From Thermoproteota archaeon (GTDB lineage Archaea > Asgardarchaeota > Jordiarchaeia > Jordiarchaeales > Freyrarchaeaceae): a stretch of 23,512 nucleotides of DNA. The stretch spans positions 1-23,512 of the forward strand of contig JAPDJY010000015.1 of assembly GCA_029258835.1 (NCBI GenBank), given 5' to 3'. Every line of letters begins with the position of its first letter. The first letter of the stretch is position 1. Below the pieces are notes generated by a model that saw only the letters and a list, made by a program, of their open reading frames with translations, had not been told where the DNA came from and searched no databases. The position numbers were made by a program, and so were the translations under genes. Below, in pieces: positions 11,763 through 21,261 of this stretch.

Positions 11763-11874
11763 TGGGTGGGCCAGGATTCGAACCTGGGACCTTAGCGCGC
11801 ATTCACGCGATCCGCCGTGTGAGGGCGGCTTTACGCCCCTCTTCAGGGAGTCATAACCCCTAGACTACCCACCC
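11763..11874 (-). tRNA. tRNA-Val (anticodon CAC) with two non-canonical introns (about 20 nt near position 25-27 and about 19 nt near position 43-45)
   Basis: On the minus strand the acceptor stem is GGGTGGG/CCCACCC with discriminator A, and the D arm is GTCT..TGAC. The anticodon arm is CCGCC-CTCACAC-GGCGG, the variable loop is AGGTC, and the T arm is CCAGG-TTCGAAT-CCTGG. The gene is 112 nt; removing about 11830-11849 and about 11793-11811 leaves 73 nt. CCA is not encoded. Confidence 0.85.
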
Positions 11875-17955: not shown

Positions 17956-18993
17956 TTACTTTCCGCTGACCAACTCGTCCCCGCCCATCTCGATGAAGTA
18001 CACTGCATCAAGCTTAACGTCCTTCACCTCTTTTTCTTTCCTTTTCAAGTTCAAGTCTCCCTTTAAAAGGTGAACCTCGCCGCTGAGAGGATCTAAAATG
18101 AACTCGATTGCTTCGCGCTCTTCCCACTCAGGAATTTTCACGTAAATCTCACCGCTCTCAAACACCCATCCAACAGTCACTAAAGGCTTCCAAAGGCCAC
18201 CACGCCCGATGACGAAAAACGCGGGGGAAACGGAGAGGGGATTAGCTGTAACTTCCTCGACAAGAGAGGAGAGTTTCATAAGCAGCCTTTCCTGTCCATT
18301 GGGATACCTAACCTTAAACGGCGCGACCCTCTCCACAAGGTAAAACTGCTTTCCCTCATCCCTCTCAGGAACCAGCAAGTTAACCGCCAAAACCACACGT
18401 TCATCGTCTTCAAACTCAAAATTAGTGTAAAAGGGTTCCTCTACGACGCTATAAATCCGCTCAATAAGCGCCCACGCATCAAAGGATACACCCTCCCAGC
18501 TCAAACCGAACTTTAACGCTTCAATTTCCTCAACGCCGGAGGGGAACTGGATGAACTCCCTCTGAGGGTGAAACTCACGTTTAACCTCCTCAAACAATTC
18601 TCCAATAGCCCTTTCAGCATCCTTATCACAATACACTTCAACCATCACATCAAAACGATTCAACCTACCGCCCTCCCCCCTCAACATGGTAACGATATCC
18701 CCAAAGGAAATAACACCCCTGAGACGCCTAACAACCTTACCCGAAAAAGCAATTTTCCTGTAAAGCCGCCTATGAGCAGCAATTTTTTCATATAAAGTAT
18801 CAGAAATAGGGGGGCTGCTTTCCTCGATGTAAACCCGCACCTTCTCCAAGCCCGGAACACCTCCAAAACAAAATAAAAAGCAAGAAATTATATAAAATAA
18901 TATTCCAGTCTCAAAAGCAATAAACATGAAAAGCAAGCAACAAAAAAGAAAGCGCATATCAAGCTCTGAGAAAACAGAGAACAGAAGCAACAA
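17956..18993 (-). CDS. hypothetical protein; true start probably near 18849 (TTG) or 18840 (GTG)
   Basis: Long ORF with host-typical NNU/NNG codon usage. Its first ~48 codons are a Phe/Leu/Cys-rich translation of an AT-rich tract that contains a strong minus-strand TATA box (TTTTATATAA, about 18890-18899), so they are likely non-coding. Confidence 0.65.
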   Translation of the reverse strand: MLLLFSVFSELDMRFLFCCLLFMFIAFETGILFYIISCFLFCFGGVPGLEKVRVYIEESSPPISDTLYEKIAAHRRLYRKIAFSGKVVRRLRGVISFGDIVTMLRGEGGRLNRFDVMVEVYCDKDAERAIGELFEEVKREFHPQREFIQFPSGVEEIEALKFGLSWEGVSFDAWALIERIYSVVEEPFYTNFEFEDDERVVLAVNLLVPERDEGKQFYLVERVAPFKVRYPNGQERLLMKLSSLVEEVTANPLSVSPAFFVIGRGGLWKPLVTVGWVFESGEIYVKIPEWEEREAIEFILDPLSGEVHLLKGDLNLKRKEKEVKDVKLDAVYFIEMGGDELVSGK

Positions 18994-19000
18994 GAAAAGT

Positions 19001-19012
19001 TTTAAATATTTT
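19001..19012 (+). promoter_or_regulatory. TATA box for tRNA-Phe
   Basis: TTTAAATATTTT is centred about 30 nt upstream of tRNA position 1 (19037). Confidence 0.4.
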
Positions 19013-19036
19013 CCTAAAGACTTGAATAACTTAGGT

Positions 19037-19183
19037 GCCGCCGTAGCTCAGCAGGGAGGCAAAAGCCCCAAAGCGCTCGACCCAACTCGGGGCGAAGCTG
19101 AAGGCAAATCAATATTTACGGTCAGAGACCGAGTTGTCGTGGGTTCAAAAGGCGATAACCTGGAAGTCCCACCGGCGGCACCA
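19037..19183 (+). tRNA. tRNA-Phe (anticodon GAA) interrupted by four putative introns; CCA encoded
   Basis: The acceptor stem is GCCGCCG/CGGCGGC with discriminator A followed by CCA. Removing 19059-19071 (13 nt), 19080-19096 (17 nt), 19104-19127 (24 nt, canonical 37/38 site) and 19150-19166 (17 nt, T loop) gives a 73-nt cloverleaf. Its parts are GCCGCCG TA GCTC AGCAGGGA GAGC G CTCGG CTGAAGA CCGAG TTGTC GTGGG TTCAAAT CCCAC CGGCGGC A. The canonical intron forms a textbook BHB: central helix CTGA/TCAG with bulges AGG and AGA. Confidence 0.8.
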
Positions 19184-19203
19184 CCCATCTTTTAAACTGT
19201 CCT

Positions 19204-19208
19204 TTTTC
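19204..19208 (+). terminator. oligo-T tract downstream of tRNA-Phe
   Basis: CCTTTTTC lies 20 nt after the encoded CCA, and TCTTTT is also present at 19189-19193. Archaeal RNA polymerase terminates at T-runs. Confidence 0.35.
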
Positions 19209-19557
19209 TAGGTAACTTCGTCCATCAAGGCTTAACTCTTTTAGAAGTATTTTTCATTGTTAACGGAGAAAAGAGTGTTGTATGATGACACAAAGAAGGG
19301 AGGCTAAACGGAGCGAAACGCGACACGCCGGAAGGCATCGCCGAAAAGACCTAGGAATCCTTAGGGCTCCCGGCCGATGCAATGTTTTAAAGGGTTCAGT
19401 TTCCTGGGGATGTGATCCCTGATAGGTTTCGCCAAAGTCCAGTTAGCAGTTGCATAGGCTTAAAAGAAAATGTCCTTTACGTGATCTACCCAGTTTTTTG
19501 TCCAACGCTTAGGAGGCATACGTTTAGTGGGGAAGGGTGAGGAACCGTTTTGAAAAG

Positions 19558-19566
19558 AAATATATA
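19558..19566 (+). promoter_or_regulatory. TATA box for tRNA-Trp
   Basis: AAATATATA is centred about 32 nt upstream of tRNA position 1 (19594). Confidence 0.4.
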
Positions 19567-19593
19567 CTCCTTTTCCATATGGTTTCTGCTGAT

Positions 19594-19806
19594 GGGGGCG
19601 TAGCGCAGCCAGAACTATGTGTGGTTAAGCAGCGCGGCTGGCTCCAGAAGCAATGAGTTGAAGCTGGTGCGCTGAAGGAGGATGATGACCTTCTGGAGCG
19701 CCGAGCGAGGAGGCACCAGCCAGGTGATATGTATTAATTACATTGGGGTGGCACCAGCAAGTCGTGGGTTCGCCCTTATTGGGGCCTAGAAATCCCACCG
19801 CCCCCA
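19594..19806 (+). tRNA. tRNA-Trp (anticodon CCA) with three introns (D loop, canonical 37/38, T loop)
   Basis: The acceptor stem is GGGGGCG/CGCCCCC with discriminator A, and the D stem is GCGC/GCGC. The anticodon stem is GCTGG (19637-41) paired with CCAGC (19754-58), giving the loop CTCCAG|A once 19648-19752 (105 nt) is removed. The variable loop is AAGTC. The T arm is GTGGG-TTCG[19773-19790]AAT-CCCAC. The D loop carries an extra ~15-17 nt centred on the hairpin AACTA-TGTG-TGGTT (19613-19626). Confidence 0.85.
19653..19704 (+). ncRNA. box C/D guide RNA embedded in the tRNA-Trp canonical intron
   Basis: There is a degenerate C box around 19653-19661 (AUGAGUUGA), D' CTGA at 19672-75, C' ATGATGA at 19682-88 and a D-like CCGA at 19701-04. 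The D' guide GCTGGTGC (19663-70) is the exact complement of GCACCAGC (19751-58). The D guide CTTCTGGAGC (19690-99) is the exact complement of GCTCCAGAAG (19641-50). The nucleotides paired with the 5th position upstream of D' and D are C19754 (nt 39) and C19644 (C34). Confidence 0.75.
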
Positions 19807-19810
19807 TCAA

Positions 19811-19815
19811 TTTTT
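19811..19815 (+). terminator. oligo-T tract downstream of tRNA-Trp
   Basis: TTTTTCTTGT begins 5 nt after the discriminator base. Confidence 0.35.
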
Positions 19816-19860
19816 CTTGTTAATTGTGTAAATTGGTCTTGTTGCGTTTTTGGTTGATTA

Positions 19861-21261
<1,401 letters not shown>

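Follow-up and report, generated by a model that had tools for sequence, protein, structure and literature searches.

A probable tRNA-Phe(GAA) gene in five exons, with four short bulge-helix-bulge introns, in an Asgard archaeon of the Jordarchaeia/Freyarchaeota

How many introns have to be removed from positions 19037 to 19183 (+) of a 23,512-nucleotide (nt) archaeal contig, in the following called the window, before a transfer RNA becomes visible, and is this tRNA a working one? A first-pass annotation, made from the letters of the window, had proposed a tRNA-Phe(GAA) gene that needs four introns removed. The analysis described here indicates that this stretch is very probably a functional tRNA-Phe(GAA) gene of an Asgard archaeon (Jordarchaeia/Freyarchaeota) with four short introns of the bulge-helix-bulge (BHB) type. 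Such motifs are recognized and cut by EndA, the tRNA splicing endonuclease of archaea. The predicted gene model consists of the following elements.

19037 to 19183, + strand: whole tRNA-Phe(GAA) gene, five exons and four introns, with an encoded 3' CCA (19181 to 19183)
19037 to 19058, + strand: exon 1, tRNA positions 1 to 22, with the acceptor 5' strand GCCGCCG, U8 and A9, the D-stem 5' strand GCTC, the D loop AGCAGGGA and G22
19059 to 19071, + strand: intron 1, at position 22/23 in the D stem, 13 nt, GCAAAAGCCCCAA
19072 to 19079, + strand: exon 2, the 8-nt micro-exon AGCGCTCG, positions 23 to 30, with the D-stem 3' strand, G26 and the first four anticodon-stem bases
19080 to 19096, + strand: intron 2, at position 30/31 inside the anticodon stem, 17 nt, ACCCAACTCGGGGCGAA
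19097 to 19103, + strand: exon 3, the 7-nt micro-exon GCTGAAG, positions 31 to 37, with the anticodon GAA
19104 to 19127, + strand: intron 3, at the canonical position 37/38, 24 nt, GCAAATCAATATTTACGGTCAGAG
19128 to 19149, + strand: exon 4, positions 38 to 59, with A38, the anticodon-stem 3' strand CCGAG, the variable loop TTGTC, the T-stem strand GTGGG and TTCAAA of the T loop
19150 to 19166, + strand: intron 4, at position 59/60 in the T loop, 17 nt, AGGCGATAACCTGGAAG
19167 to 19183, + strand: exon 5, positions 60 to 76, with U60, the T-stem 3' strand CCCAC, the acceptor 3' strand CGGCGGC, the discriminator A73 and CCA

With exons in upper case and insertions in lower case, the locus reads GCCGCCGTAGCTCAGCAGGGAG / gcaaaagccccaa / AGCGCTCG / acccaactcggggcgaa / GCTGAAG / gcaaatcaatatttacggtcagag / ACCGAGTTGTCGTGGGTTCAAA / aggcgataacctggaag / TCCCACCGGCGGCACCA. 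Deletion of the four insertions in silico yields GCCGCCGTAGCTCAGCAGGGAGAGCGCTCGGCTGAAGACCGAGTTGTCGTGGGTTCAAATCCCACCGGCGGCACCA, which comprises 73 nt and the encoded CCA, and this 76-mer was recognized by ARAGORN as tRNA-Phe(gaa) with a flawless cloverleaf. All 21 stem pairs are formed (acceptor stem of 7 base pairs (bp), D stem GCTC/GAGC, anticodon stem CTCGG/CCGAG, T arm GTGGG-TTCAAAT-CCCAC), and G18, G19, G20 and A73 are present. The proposed gene, its coordinates and the standard 73-nt product with the anticodon loop CTGAAGA, the variable loop TTGTC and the T loop TTCAAAT were thereby confirmed. The usual identity set for phenylalanine, established in yeast, human and archaeal studies, consists of G20, G34, A35, A36 and A73. 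The complete set and the anticodon GAA occur in the spliced sequence and are invariant in all eight sequences that were compared (see below). The five exons lie collinearly within 147 nt; hence, the gene is neither split nor permuted.

In its unspliced form the gene escapes the common tools. ARAGORN, applied to the raw window with and without the intron mode, reported no tRNA at 19037 to 19183, and the Rfam tRNA model gave no match there at either the gathering or the E-value threshold. Signals for transcription were found on both sides of the gene.

18994 to 19009, + strand: putative archaeal promoter, a purine-rich GAAAAG similar to a transcription factor B recognition element (BRE; 18994 to 18999), followed by the TATA box TTTTAAATAT (19000 to 19009)
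19190 to 19207, + strand: oligo-T runs 3' of the gene (TTTT at 19190 to 19193 and TTTTT at 19203 to 19207), likely an archaeal transcription termination signal

The TATA box lies approximately 28 to 37 nt upstream of the mature 5' end. The motif (A/G)AAAA(G/A/T)TTTTAAATAT was found at an equal upstream distance in the window and in the related loci L002, L003 and L057, while the flanks diverge; its position and conservation make GAAAAG-TTTTAAATAT a putative BRE/TATA promoter. In each of the four loci inspected, T-runs follow the gene within 5 to 25 nt, and it is this position that makes them likely termination signals.

The first question to be answered is whether four is the smallest possible number of introns. 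Any single deletion of 24 to 35 nt that replaces introns 1 and 2 leaves no more than 5 of the 9 pairs in the D stem and the anticodon stem, and the insertions in the T loop and at position 37/38 cannot be absorbed into loops. Only three parses with two deletions reach 9/9 pairs, and these differ merely by a one-base shift of intron 1. The boundary of this intron can indeed be moved by one base (24 to 35 or 24 to 36 in the precursor) without loss of any of the nine stem pairs in the window, which could be taken as a sign that other exon structures are conceivable. However, the shifted variants still contain four introns, conflict with the homologues in which this region is contiguous (GGGAGAGCG), and would give a U12/U23 mismatch in the relatives. 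There is hence hardly any chance that a parse with three or fewer introns is equally good. The first-pass annotation had named such a parse as a possible refutation; it was ruled out by the enumeration.

The second question is whether each junction can be presented to the splicing endonuclease. The exon junctions are set by the cloverleaf, independently of the BHB motifs. The geometry scored was taken from the canonical 37/38 case: the two bulges comprise 3 nt each and are cut behind their second base, a central helix (H) of 4 bp separates them, and an outer helix (h) and an inner helix (h') flank the motif. A BHB or one of its accepted relaxed forms (HBh' or hBH) was found at all four introns. 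This includes the two upstream introns, for which the first-pass annotation had named the lack of any such fold as a refutation.

The fullest motifs are those of introns 2 and 4, which have 4/4 bp in the central helix and at least 2 bp in both flanking helices. For intron 2, the BHB is full with the central helix CGCT/GGCG, the bulges CG-A and AA-G (in bulges, the hyphen marks the cut), an inner helix of 2 bp (CC/GG) and an outer helix of 2 bp, in which A23 and G24 pair with C32 and U33. Intron 4 shows a full hBHBh' motif with the central helix TTCA/TGGA, the bulges AA-A and AG-T, the inner helix GG/CC (2 bp) and the 5-bp T stem as outer helix. The canonical intron 3 had been described as having a clean BHB. 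This was true for its central helix CTGA/TCAG (4/4 bp, C32 to A35 with TCAG) and its 3-nt bulges (AG-G and AG-A), but not for the flanking helices: the inner helix comprises 1 bp, and the outer helix, which is the anticodon stem, has only 1 bp in the primary transcript because intron 2 splits this stem. The BHB of intron 1 is relaxed. Its central helix (A)GGG/CCC(C) has 3/4 bp, with G18 to G20 paired to CCC and a mismatch of A17 and C; the bulges are AG-G and AA-A, the inner helix is reduced to one C:G pair with a loop of AAAA, and the outer helix has 2 bp (G15 and C16 with G24 and C25).

The agreement with the BHB geometry by far exceeds what chance would give. When the introns were shuffled (200,000 trials), only 0.32%, 0.10%, 0.45% and 0.13% of the shuffled sequences matched the observed BHB fit of introns 1 to 4, respectively. 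A relaxed BHB filter was passed by 26 of the 3436 possible pairs of start and end in the precursor, among them all four real introns.

The third question concerns the host and its relatives. Besides TrpRS (tryptophanyl-tRNA synthetase), the window encodes the large subunit of PolD and subunits of PFOR, among others. A protein that NCBI labels 'Candidatus Freyarchaeota archaeon' shares 99% identity with the window's TrpRS; the values are 79 to 80% for the TrpRS of the metagenome-assembled genomes (MAGs) Ca. Jordarchaeia QC4, Jordarchaeum LHC_1308 and Jordarchaeales JZ-1, and 64 to 65% for that of other Freyarchaeota, including the complete SRVP19 genome (wetland Freyarchaeia, 65%). The names Jordarchaeia and Freyarchaeota both lie within the Asgard archaea, to which the host thus belongs, and all three tRNA genes found in the window have two to four introns.

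The comparison drew on GTDB genomes, Joint Genome Institute (JGI) metagenomes and Logan assemblies. In the three relatives with approximately 80% TrpRS identity, a tRNA-Phe gene is located just upstream of the TrpRS gene and has insertions at the same four sites. A scan of the metagenomes with the pattern GTAGCTYAGCWGGGAG-N(0-30)-AGCGCTCG-N(0-30)-GCTGAAG returned six loci, three of which are further four-intron copies; one of these copies, L085, stems from an independent JGI assembly of the species to which the window belongs and differs in one base, which is located in intron 3. The other three loci (L082, L086 and L087) are intron-poor tRNA-Phe genes of other archaea, which contain GGGAGAGCGCTCGGCTGAAG without interruption, only the intron at position 37/38, and an intact T loop. 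The uninterrupted GGGAGAGCGCTCGGCTGAAG corresponds to the joint predicted for exons 1, 2 and 3 and confirms the two upstream junctions at the level of the sequence. Three more four-intron variants were detected on Logan contigs with TrpRS homologues. In total, eight contigs with seven distinct sequences carry the same four insertion sites, all beside a TrpRS gene, so that the comparison with related genomes that had been suggested supports the original parse. A search with nhmmer, in which a profile of four sequences was compared with 81 loci, revealed no syntenic tRNA-Phe beside TrpRS in the distant Freyarchaeota (L004 to L008, including the segment of the SRVP19 genome).

Across the eight sequences the introns vary in length (13 to 16, 15 to 19, 15 to 26 and 16 to 17 nt for introns 1 to 4), and the register of H and the bulges never shift. 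Exons 2 and 3 are invariant. Compared to the window, the three relatives found first have 93% identity in the exons versus 55 to 61% in the introns, and the averages over all pairs of these four sequences are 97% versus 67%. Exons and motif pairing are thus kept, while sequence and length of the introns drift. In the four-sequence alignment 100% of the cells of the cloverleaf pairs are paired. A compensatory change is seen at the acceptor pair 4:69, for which the window and L085 have G:C and the six other sequences C:G.

The pairing within the BHB motifs follows the same pattern. In the eight sequences, 89% of the BHB cells are paired versus 30 to 53% when the 3' partner is slid by one to three columns, and three BHB pairs have changed on both sides. 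The central helix of intron 2 has 4/4 bp in all eight sequences with changes from G:C to G:U and from U:G to U:A; its inner helix comprises 1 to 3 bp with a loop of variable length. For intron 4, the central helix is likewise complete in 8/8 sequences (U:G in the window, U:A in five relatives) and the inner helix has 2 to 3 bp. The central helix of intron 3 is complete (4/4 bp) in three sequences (the window, L085 and L002) and has 3/4 bp in five relatives. In L088, intron 1 is 16 nt long (TTGAAATTCACCCAAC) and has the full 4-bp central helix (TGGG/CCCA) as well as a new 3-bp inner stem TGA/TCA, in which the C:G pair of the inner helix is replaced by U:A, changed on both sides.

Several observations weigh against the interpretation as a functional gene with four BHB introns. 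In 7/8 sequences the motif of intron 1 is relaxed, since its central helix comprises 3 bp plus a mismatch and its inner helix only one pair, and the central helix of intron 3 contains an A/C mismatch in the five relatives mentioned. A shuffle control of the covariation counts was not significant for these eight closely related sequences; the case therefore rests on the conservation of the register under change of length. In addition, nearest-neighbour folding revealed no BHB in the minimum-energy structure, and the BHB conformers cost 2 to 9 kcal/mol. This was calculated for the precursor and all 14 partly spliced intermediates, in which the BHB of each remaining intron was enforced. The cost was highest for intron 2; the independent BHBs of introns 1 and 2 cost 4.6 and 7.1 kcal/mol, respectively. 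However, even the textbook-like BHB of the T-loop intron costs approximately 3 kcal/mol, and the folding-energy test therefore does not discriminate. The costs barely vary with the other introns already removed, so that no splicing order can be derived from folding energies. An RNAalifold consensus recovered the acceptor stem, the T stem, two inner hairpins and the outer helix of intron 2, while the bulged helices were replaced by continuous stems; this is the expected outcome and is uninformative with regard to the BHBs.

The high costs of introns 1 and 2 and the overlap of their independent BHBs lend some appeal to another idea, which builds on the joint fold of both introns put forward in the first-pass annotation: GCCCC in intron 1 might pair first with GGGGC in intron 2 across the 8-nt micro-exon, and both introns would then be processed as one composite structure. 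The pairing itself is structurally possible in all eight sequences: the window can form the 5-bp cross helix, and over the whole set 90% of the cells of this helix are paired. It is, however, not needed and does not explain the cleavage sites, as with the cross helix neither intron has its splice sites in two 3-nt bulges separated by 4 bp. The C-runs and G-runs are already paired within their own BHBs, and in 8/8 sequences these BHBs position the cuts correctly. No pair of the cross helix has changed on both sides, and when it is slid by -1 or -2 columns 62 to 68% of the cells are still paired, as expected for G-runs facing C-runs. The rebuilt intron 1 of L088 with its own inner stem TGA/TCA also argues for self-contained folding. 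Composite processing is therefore improbable, and the cross-pairing is better regarded as a possible competing side conformer of the precursor.

Another long-range pairing was observed by RNAalifold. The D loop GCTGGGA is complementary to TCCCAGC in intron 3 in most relatives (L002, L003, L057, L088 and L089; columns 15 to 21 with 87 to 93 of alignment A2), which yields a 7-bp helix. This helix is broken in the window and in L085. It may represent a competing or a chaperoning interaction in the precursor.

Could the locus be a decaying pseudogene, or a remnant disrupted by insertions, with the working tRNA-Phe encoded elsewhere? The failure of the standard finders to call it would fit this explanation, which nevertheless has a very low probability. 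The exons are under strong constraint (93 to 97% identity versus 55 to 67% in the introns) across seven lineages with approximately 20% TrpRS divergence; the acceptor stem shows the compensatory change at pair 4:69, the promoter is conserved, and the BHB geometry is kept despite the changes in intron length. Furthermore, the published tRNA table of a complete Freyarchaeia genome, with 38 entries, contains no tRNA-Phe (PMC11291895), which points to a copy that is hidden rather than free of introns.

A coding function is hard to reconcile with the relatives. An open reading frame (ORF) of 89 codons is present at 18926 to 19195 (+), and a gene caller reported it on an identical Logan contig (L001, 13464 to 13733); no Pfam match was found for the product of that ORF. 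The relatives, however, contain insertions and deletions that are no multiples of three within this ORF (intron 2 with 15, 17, 18 or 19 nt, intron 3 with 15 or 22 to 26 nt, intron 4 with 16 or 17 nt), and conservation tracks the tRNA exons and the RNA pairing instead of codons. That the ORF is a real protein-coding feature can practically be dismissed; the gene call is almost certainly an error that arose because the tRNA was not recognized.

If the locus is accepted as a four-intron tRNA-Phe gene, the following processing route can be proposed from sequence and from established knowledge of archaeal tRNA splicing. Transcription from the gene's own BRE/TATA promoter would give a precursor of approximately 150 nt. 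Each junction would fold into a BHB with two 3-nt bulges on opposite strands that are cut after the second bulge nucleotide, so that EndA would cleave the precursor at eight bulge sites. A ligase of the RtcB type would presumably join the exon ends, and the 5' and 3' ends would be trimmed as usual. No EndA gene was found in the 23.5-kb window. For Asgard archaea, a broad-specificity (alpha-beta)2 EndA with an L1 specificity loop was reported, which cuts non-canonical and relaxed motifs (PMC5829648), and Atabeyarchaeia-1 possesses two K01170 genes (PMC11291895).

The motifs of the first three introns share bases. C25 is common to the outer helix of intron 1 and the central helix of intron 2, and C32 to G34 are common to the outer helix of intron 2 and the central helix of intron 3. 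Because these motifs overlap and intron 2 additionally splits the outer helix of intron 3, not all three can form at once. Splicing would most likely proceed via at least two rounds of refolding, or it might be performed by an enzyme with relaxed specificity. In six relatives, the last base of intron 1 lengthens the outer helix of intron 2 to 3 bp, which weakly hints, as far as the sequence can tell, that intron 2 is recognizable while intron 1 is still present.

A more far-reaching interpretation is possible but doubtful. According to it, the four-intron gene is the sole tRNA-Phe gene in Jordarchaeales/Freyarchaeia and matures through an obligatory series of splicing steps in a set order. BHB motifs that exclude each other would be exposed serially, with intron 2 preceding intron 3 and with introns 1 and 2 incompatible. 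The D-stem intron, the 8-nt micro-exon and the anticodon-stem intron would form an ancient unit shared with the tRNA-Phe of Atabeyarchaeia. The introns would then have been retained by selection, for example as a checkpoint of folding or modification, instead of being recent parasitic insertions. A sole four-intron gene would explain why tRNA-Phe is missing from the published Freyarchaeia table.

Is a tRNA with four introns exceptional? The first-pass annotation had given three introns per tRNA as the reported maximum. This limit stems from the literature on Thermoproteales and is repeated in the tRNAscan-SE 2.0 paper (PMC8450103), but it no longer holds. Valentin-Alvarado et al. (2024, Nat Commun) described introns in 92 to 95% of the tRNA genes of three genomes, two from Atabeyarchaeia and one from Freyarchaeia; more than half of the tRNA genes in these genomes have several (PMC11291895). 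Supplementary Data 4 of that study contains columns for a fourth intron, with four-intron entries for Arg-TCT, Ile2-CAT and Leu-GAG in Freyarchaeia and for Trp-CCA and Lys-TTT in Atabeyarchaeia-2. Since four-intron tRNAs had thus been tabulated in 2024, the locus described here sets no record; it is a new example of a four-intron tRNA, namely tRNA-Phe in the Jordarchaeales branch. In the open-access literature, no report of four-intron tRNAs in the main text of a paper was found, and the open-access text of the paper describing Jordarchaeia makes no mention of tRNA introns.

The tabulated four-intron tRNAs belong to the same Asgard group and likewise have four short BHB-type introns, in some cases micro-exons of 8 to 9 nt, and a combination of non-canonical sites in the D arm, the anticodon stem and the T loop. 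In the Freyarchaeia Arg-TCT, with exons of 22, 9, 8, 8 and 31 nt (PMC11291895), the first intron also follows 22 nt of exon. The isotype is different, as no four-intron tRNA-Phe was tabulated, and the lineage of the window clusters with the hot-spring Jordarchaeia MAGs (QC4, LHC_1308 and JZ-1; approximately 80% TrpRS identity) in contrast to the published wetland Freyarchaeia. Besides tRNA-Phe, the Freyarchaeia table lacks His, Cys and Glu, among others, which suggests that further heavily interrupted tRNA genes were not called in this genome. In this group, tRNA-Phe is probably an isotype missed by current pipelines.

The closest counterpart of the same isotype is the tRNA-Phe(GAA) of Atabeyarchaeia, which has a D-stem intron, an 8-nt micro-exon and an anticodon-stem intron, arranged as introns 1 and 2 of the window's gene are, and also a T-loop intron. 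The tRNA-Phe of Atabeyarchaeia-2 contains three introns, and its exon lengths derived from Supplementary Data 4 are 23, 8, 23 and 23 nt (PMC11291895). In contrast to the window's gene, no intron at position 37/38 is listed, the T-arm intron follows approximately position 54 and not 59, and the introns are longer (21, 38 and 33 nt), as far as tabulated lengths allow the comparison.

Multi-intron tRNA genes of Thermoproteales were reportedly described by Sugahara et al. in 2008. They resemble the window's gene in possessing BHB or relaxed BHB introns at non-canonical positions, in requiring an (alpha-beta)2 EndA with a specificity loop, and in neighbouring introns of which one can need removal before the next motif forms. 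They differ in their maximum of three introns per gene (PMC8450103) and in belonging to another phylum (Thermoproteota). The nuclear tRNA-Ile(UAU) of Cyanidioschyzon merolae also has introns in the D stem, at position 37/38 and in the T loop with hBHBh' motifs, but it is eukaryotic and has three introns, none of them in the anticodon stem. For this tRNA, reverse transcription PCR showed that the D-stem and T-loop introns are removed before the canonical one (PMC3728597), and it is thus a useful experimental model for the question of splicing order.

If the interpretation is correct, a tRNA that is likely essential is encoded in five pieces in an Asgard group, the smallest of which measure 7 and 8 nt. 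That ARAGORN and the Rfam model return nothing for such a gene, and a gene caller a spurious ORF, bears on estimates of genome completeness and on the 'missing tRNA' problem described for genomes of Asgard archaea and DPANN (PMC5829648). With their overlapping BHBs, the eight natural variants aligned here provide a ready set of substrates for studies on the Asgard (alpha-beta)2 endonuclease and on the order of intron removal. The handling of such closely packed introns is also relevant to the evolution of tRNA splicing on the lineage leading to eukaryotes.

Other RNA genes of the window are interrupted or rearranged as well. The following features were identified.

19594 to 19806, + strand: tRNA-Trp(CCA), directly upstream of the TrpRS gene, found by ARAGORN only after removal of three introns
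19613 to 19628, + strand: tRNA-Trp intron in the D loop, 16 nt
19648 to 19752, + strand: tRNA-Trp intron at position 37/38, 105 nt
19772 to 19789, + strand: tRNA-Trp intron in the T loop (56/57), 18 nt
11763 to 11874, - strand: tRNA-Val(CAC), with approximately 39 extra nt, an Rfam tRNA match of 39.8 bits at the E-value threshold that is missed at gathering
approximately 11831 to 11848, - strand: tRNA-Val insertion between the D and anticodon stems, 18 nt
approximately 11792 to 11810, - strand: tRNA-Val insertion in the variable region, 19 nt, with 4/4 bp in the central helix and an inner helix of 5 bp
19908 to 20070, + strand: apparently permuted 5S ribosomal RNA (rRNA) gene, in which the 3' part (19931 to 20000) precedes the 5' part (20002 to 20052), with one base between them

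The best parse of tRNA-Val(CAC) involves two non-canonical BHB insertions and no intron at position 37/38; it leaves two extra bases between the D and anticodon stems. A box C/D guide is known in the tRNA-Trp intron of Haloferax and other archaea. The 105-nt tRNA-Trp intron of the window contains a C box, ATGATGA, at 19682 as well as CTTCTGGAGC, which is complementary to the anticodon loop and the intron junction. It therefore resembles the Haloferax intron and is a candidate for such a guide by analogy. The Rfam matches to sR23 and sR3 in this intron are weak.

The distance between the tRNA-Phe and TrpRS genes is about 990 nt in the window (19184 to 20172), compared to about 110 to 120 nt in the relatives with approximately 80% TrpRS identity (L002, 5882 to 6000; L003, 750 to 857; L057, 5892 to 6000). 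The longer stretch comprises the tRNA-Trp gene, the permuted 5S gene and a spacer of 410 nt (19184 to 19593), in which an ATGATGA motif occurs near 19283. It is therefore likely that a cluster of RNA genes was inserted or rearranged in the lineage of the window.

Judged by its sequence, the 5S rRNA gene is apparently circularly permuted. Its 3' part runs from GTCAAGCCCGCATGCG to GGGTGCTGGTGTCA and its 5' part from GGCGCCGGCCATAGCATGCGGGG to CCGAACACGGAA; joined in the order 5' then 3', they form a 121-nt 5S rRNA with helix I, helix II (GCATGCGGG/CCCGCATGC) and loop C. The trailer (20054 to 20066) pairs with the leader (19912 to 19924) at 13/13 positions, and a BHB-like motif (ACGG/CTGG, bulges AA-A and AA-G) is located beside this helix. 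It would ligate GGAA to GUCAAG (GGAA-GTCAAG in the DNA) in loop C. In Rfam, the permuted gene gave only two sub-threshold half matches, and a search of the open-access literature yielded no account of a permuted archaeal 5S gene; the arrangement may be more novel than the four-intron tRNA-Phe. The independent metagenome contig L085 shows the same 5S arrangement with 98.6% identity and a change from G:U to G:C in helix I.

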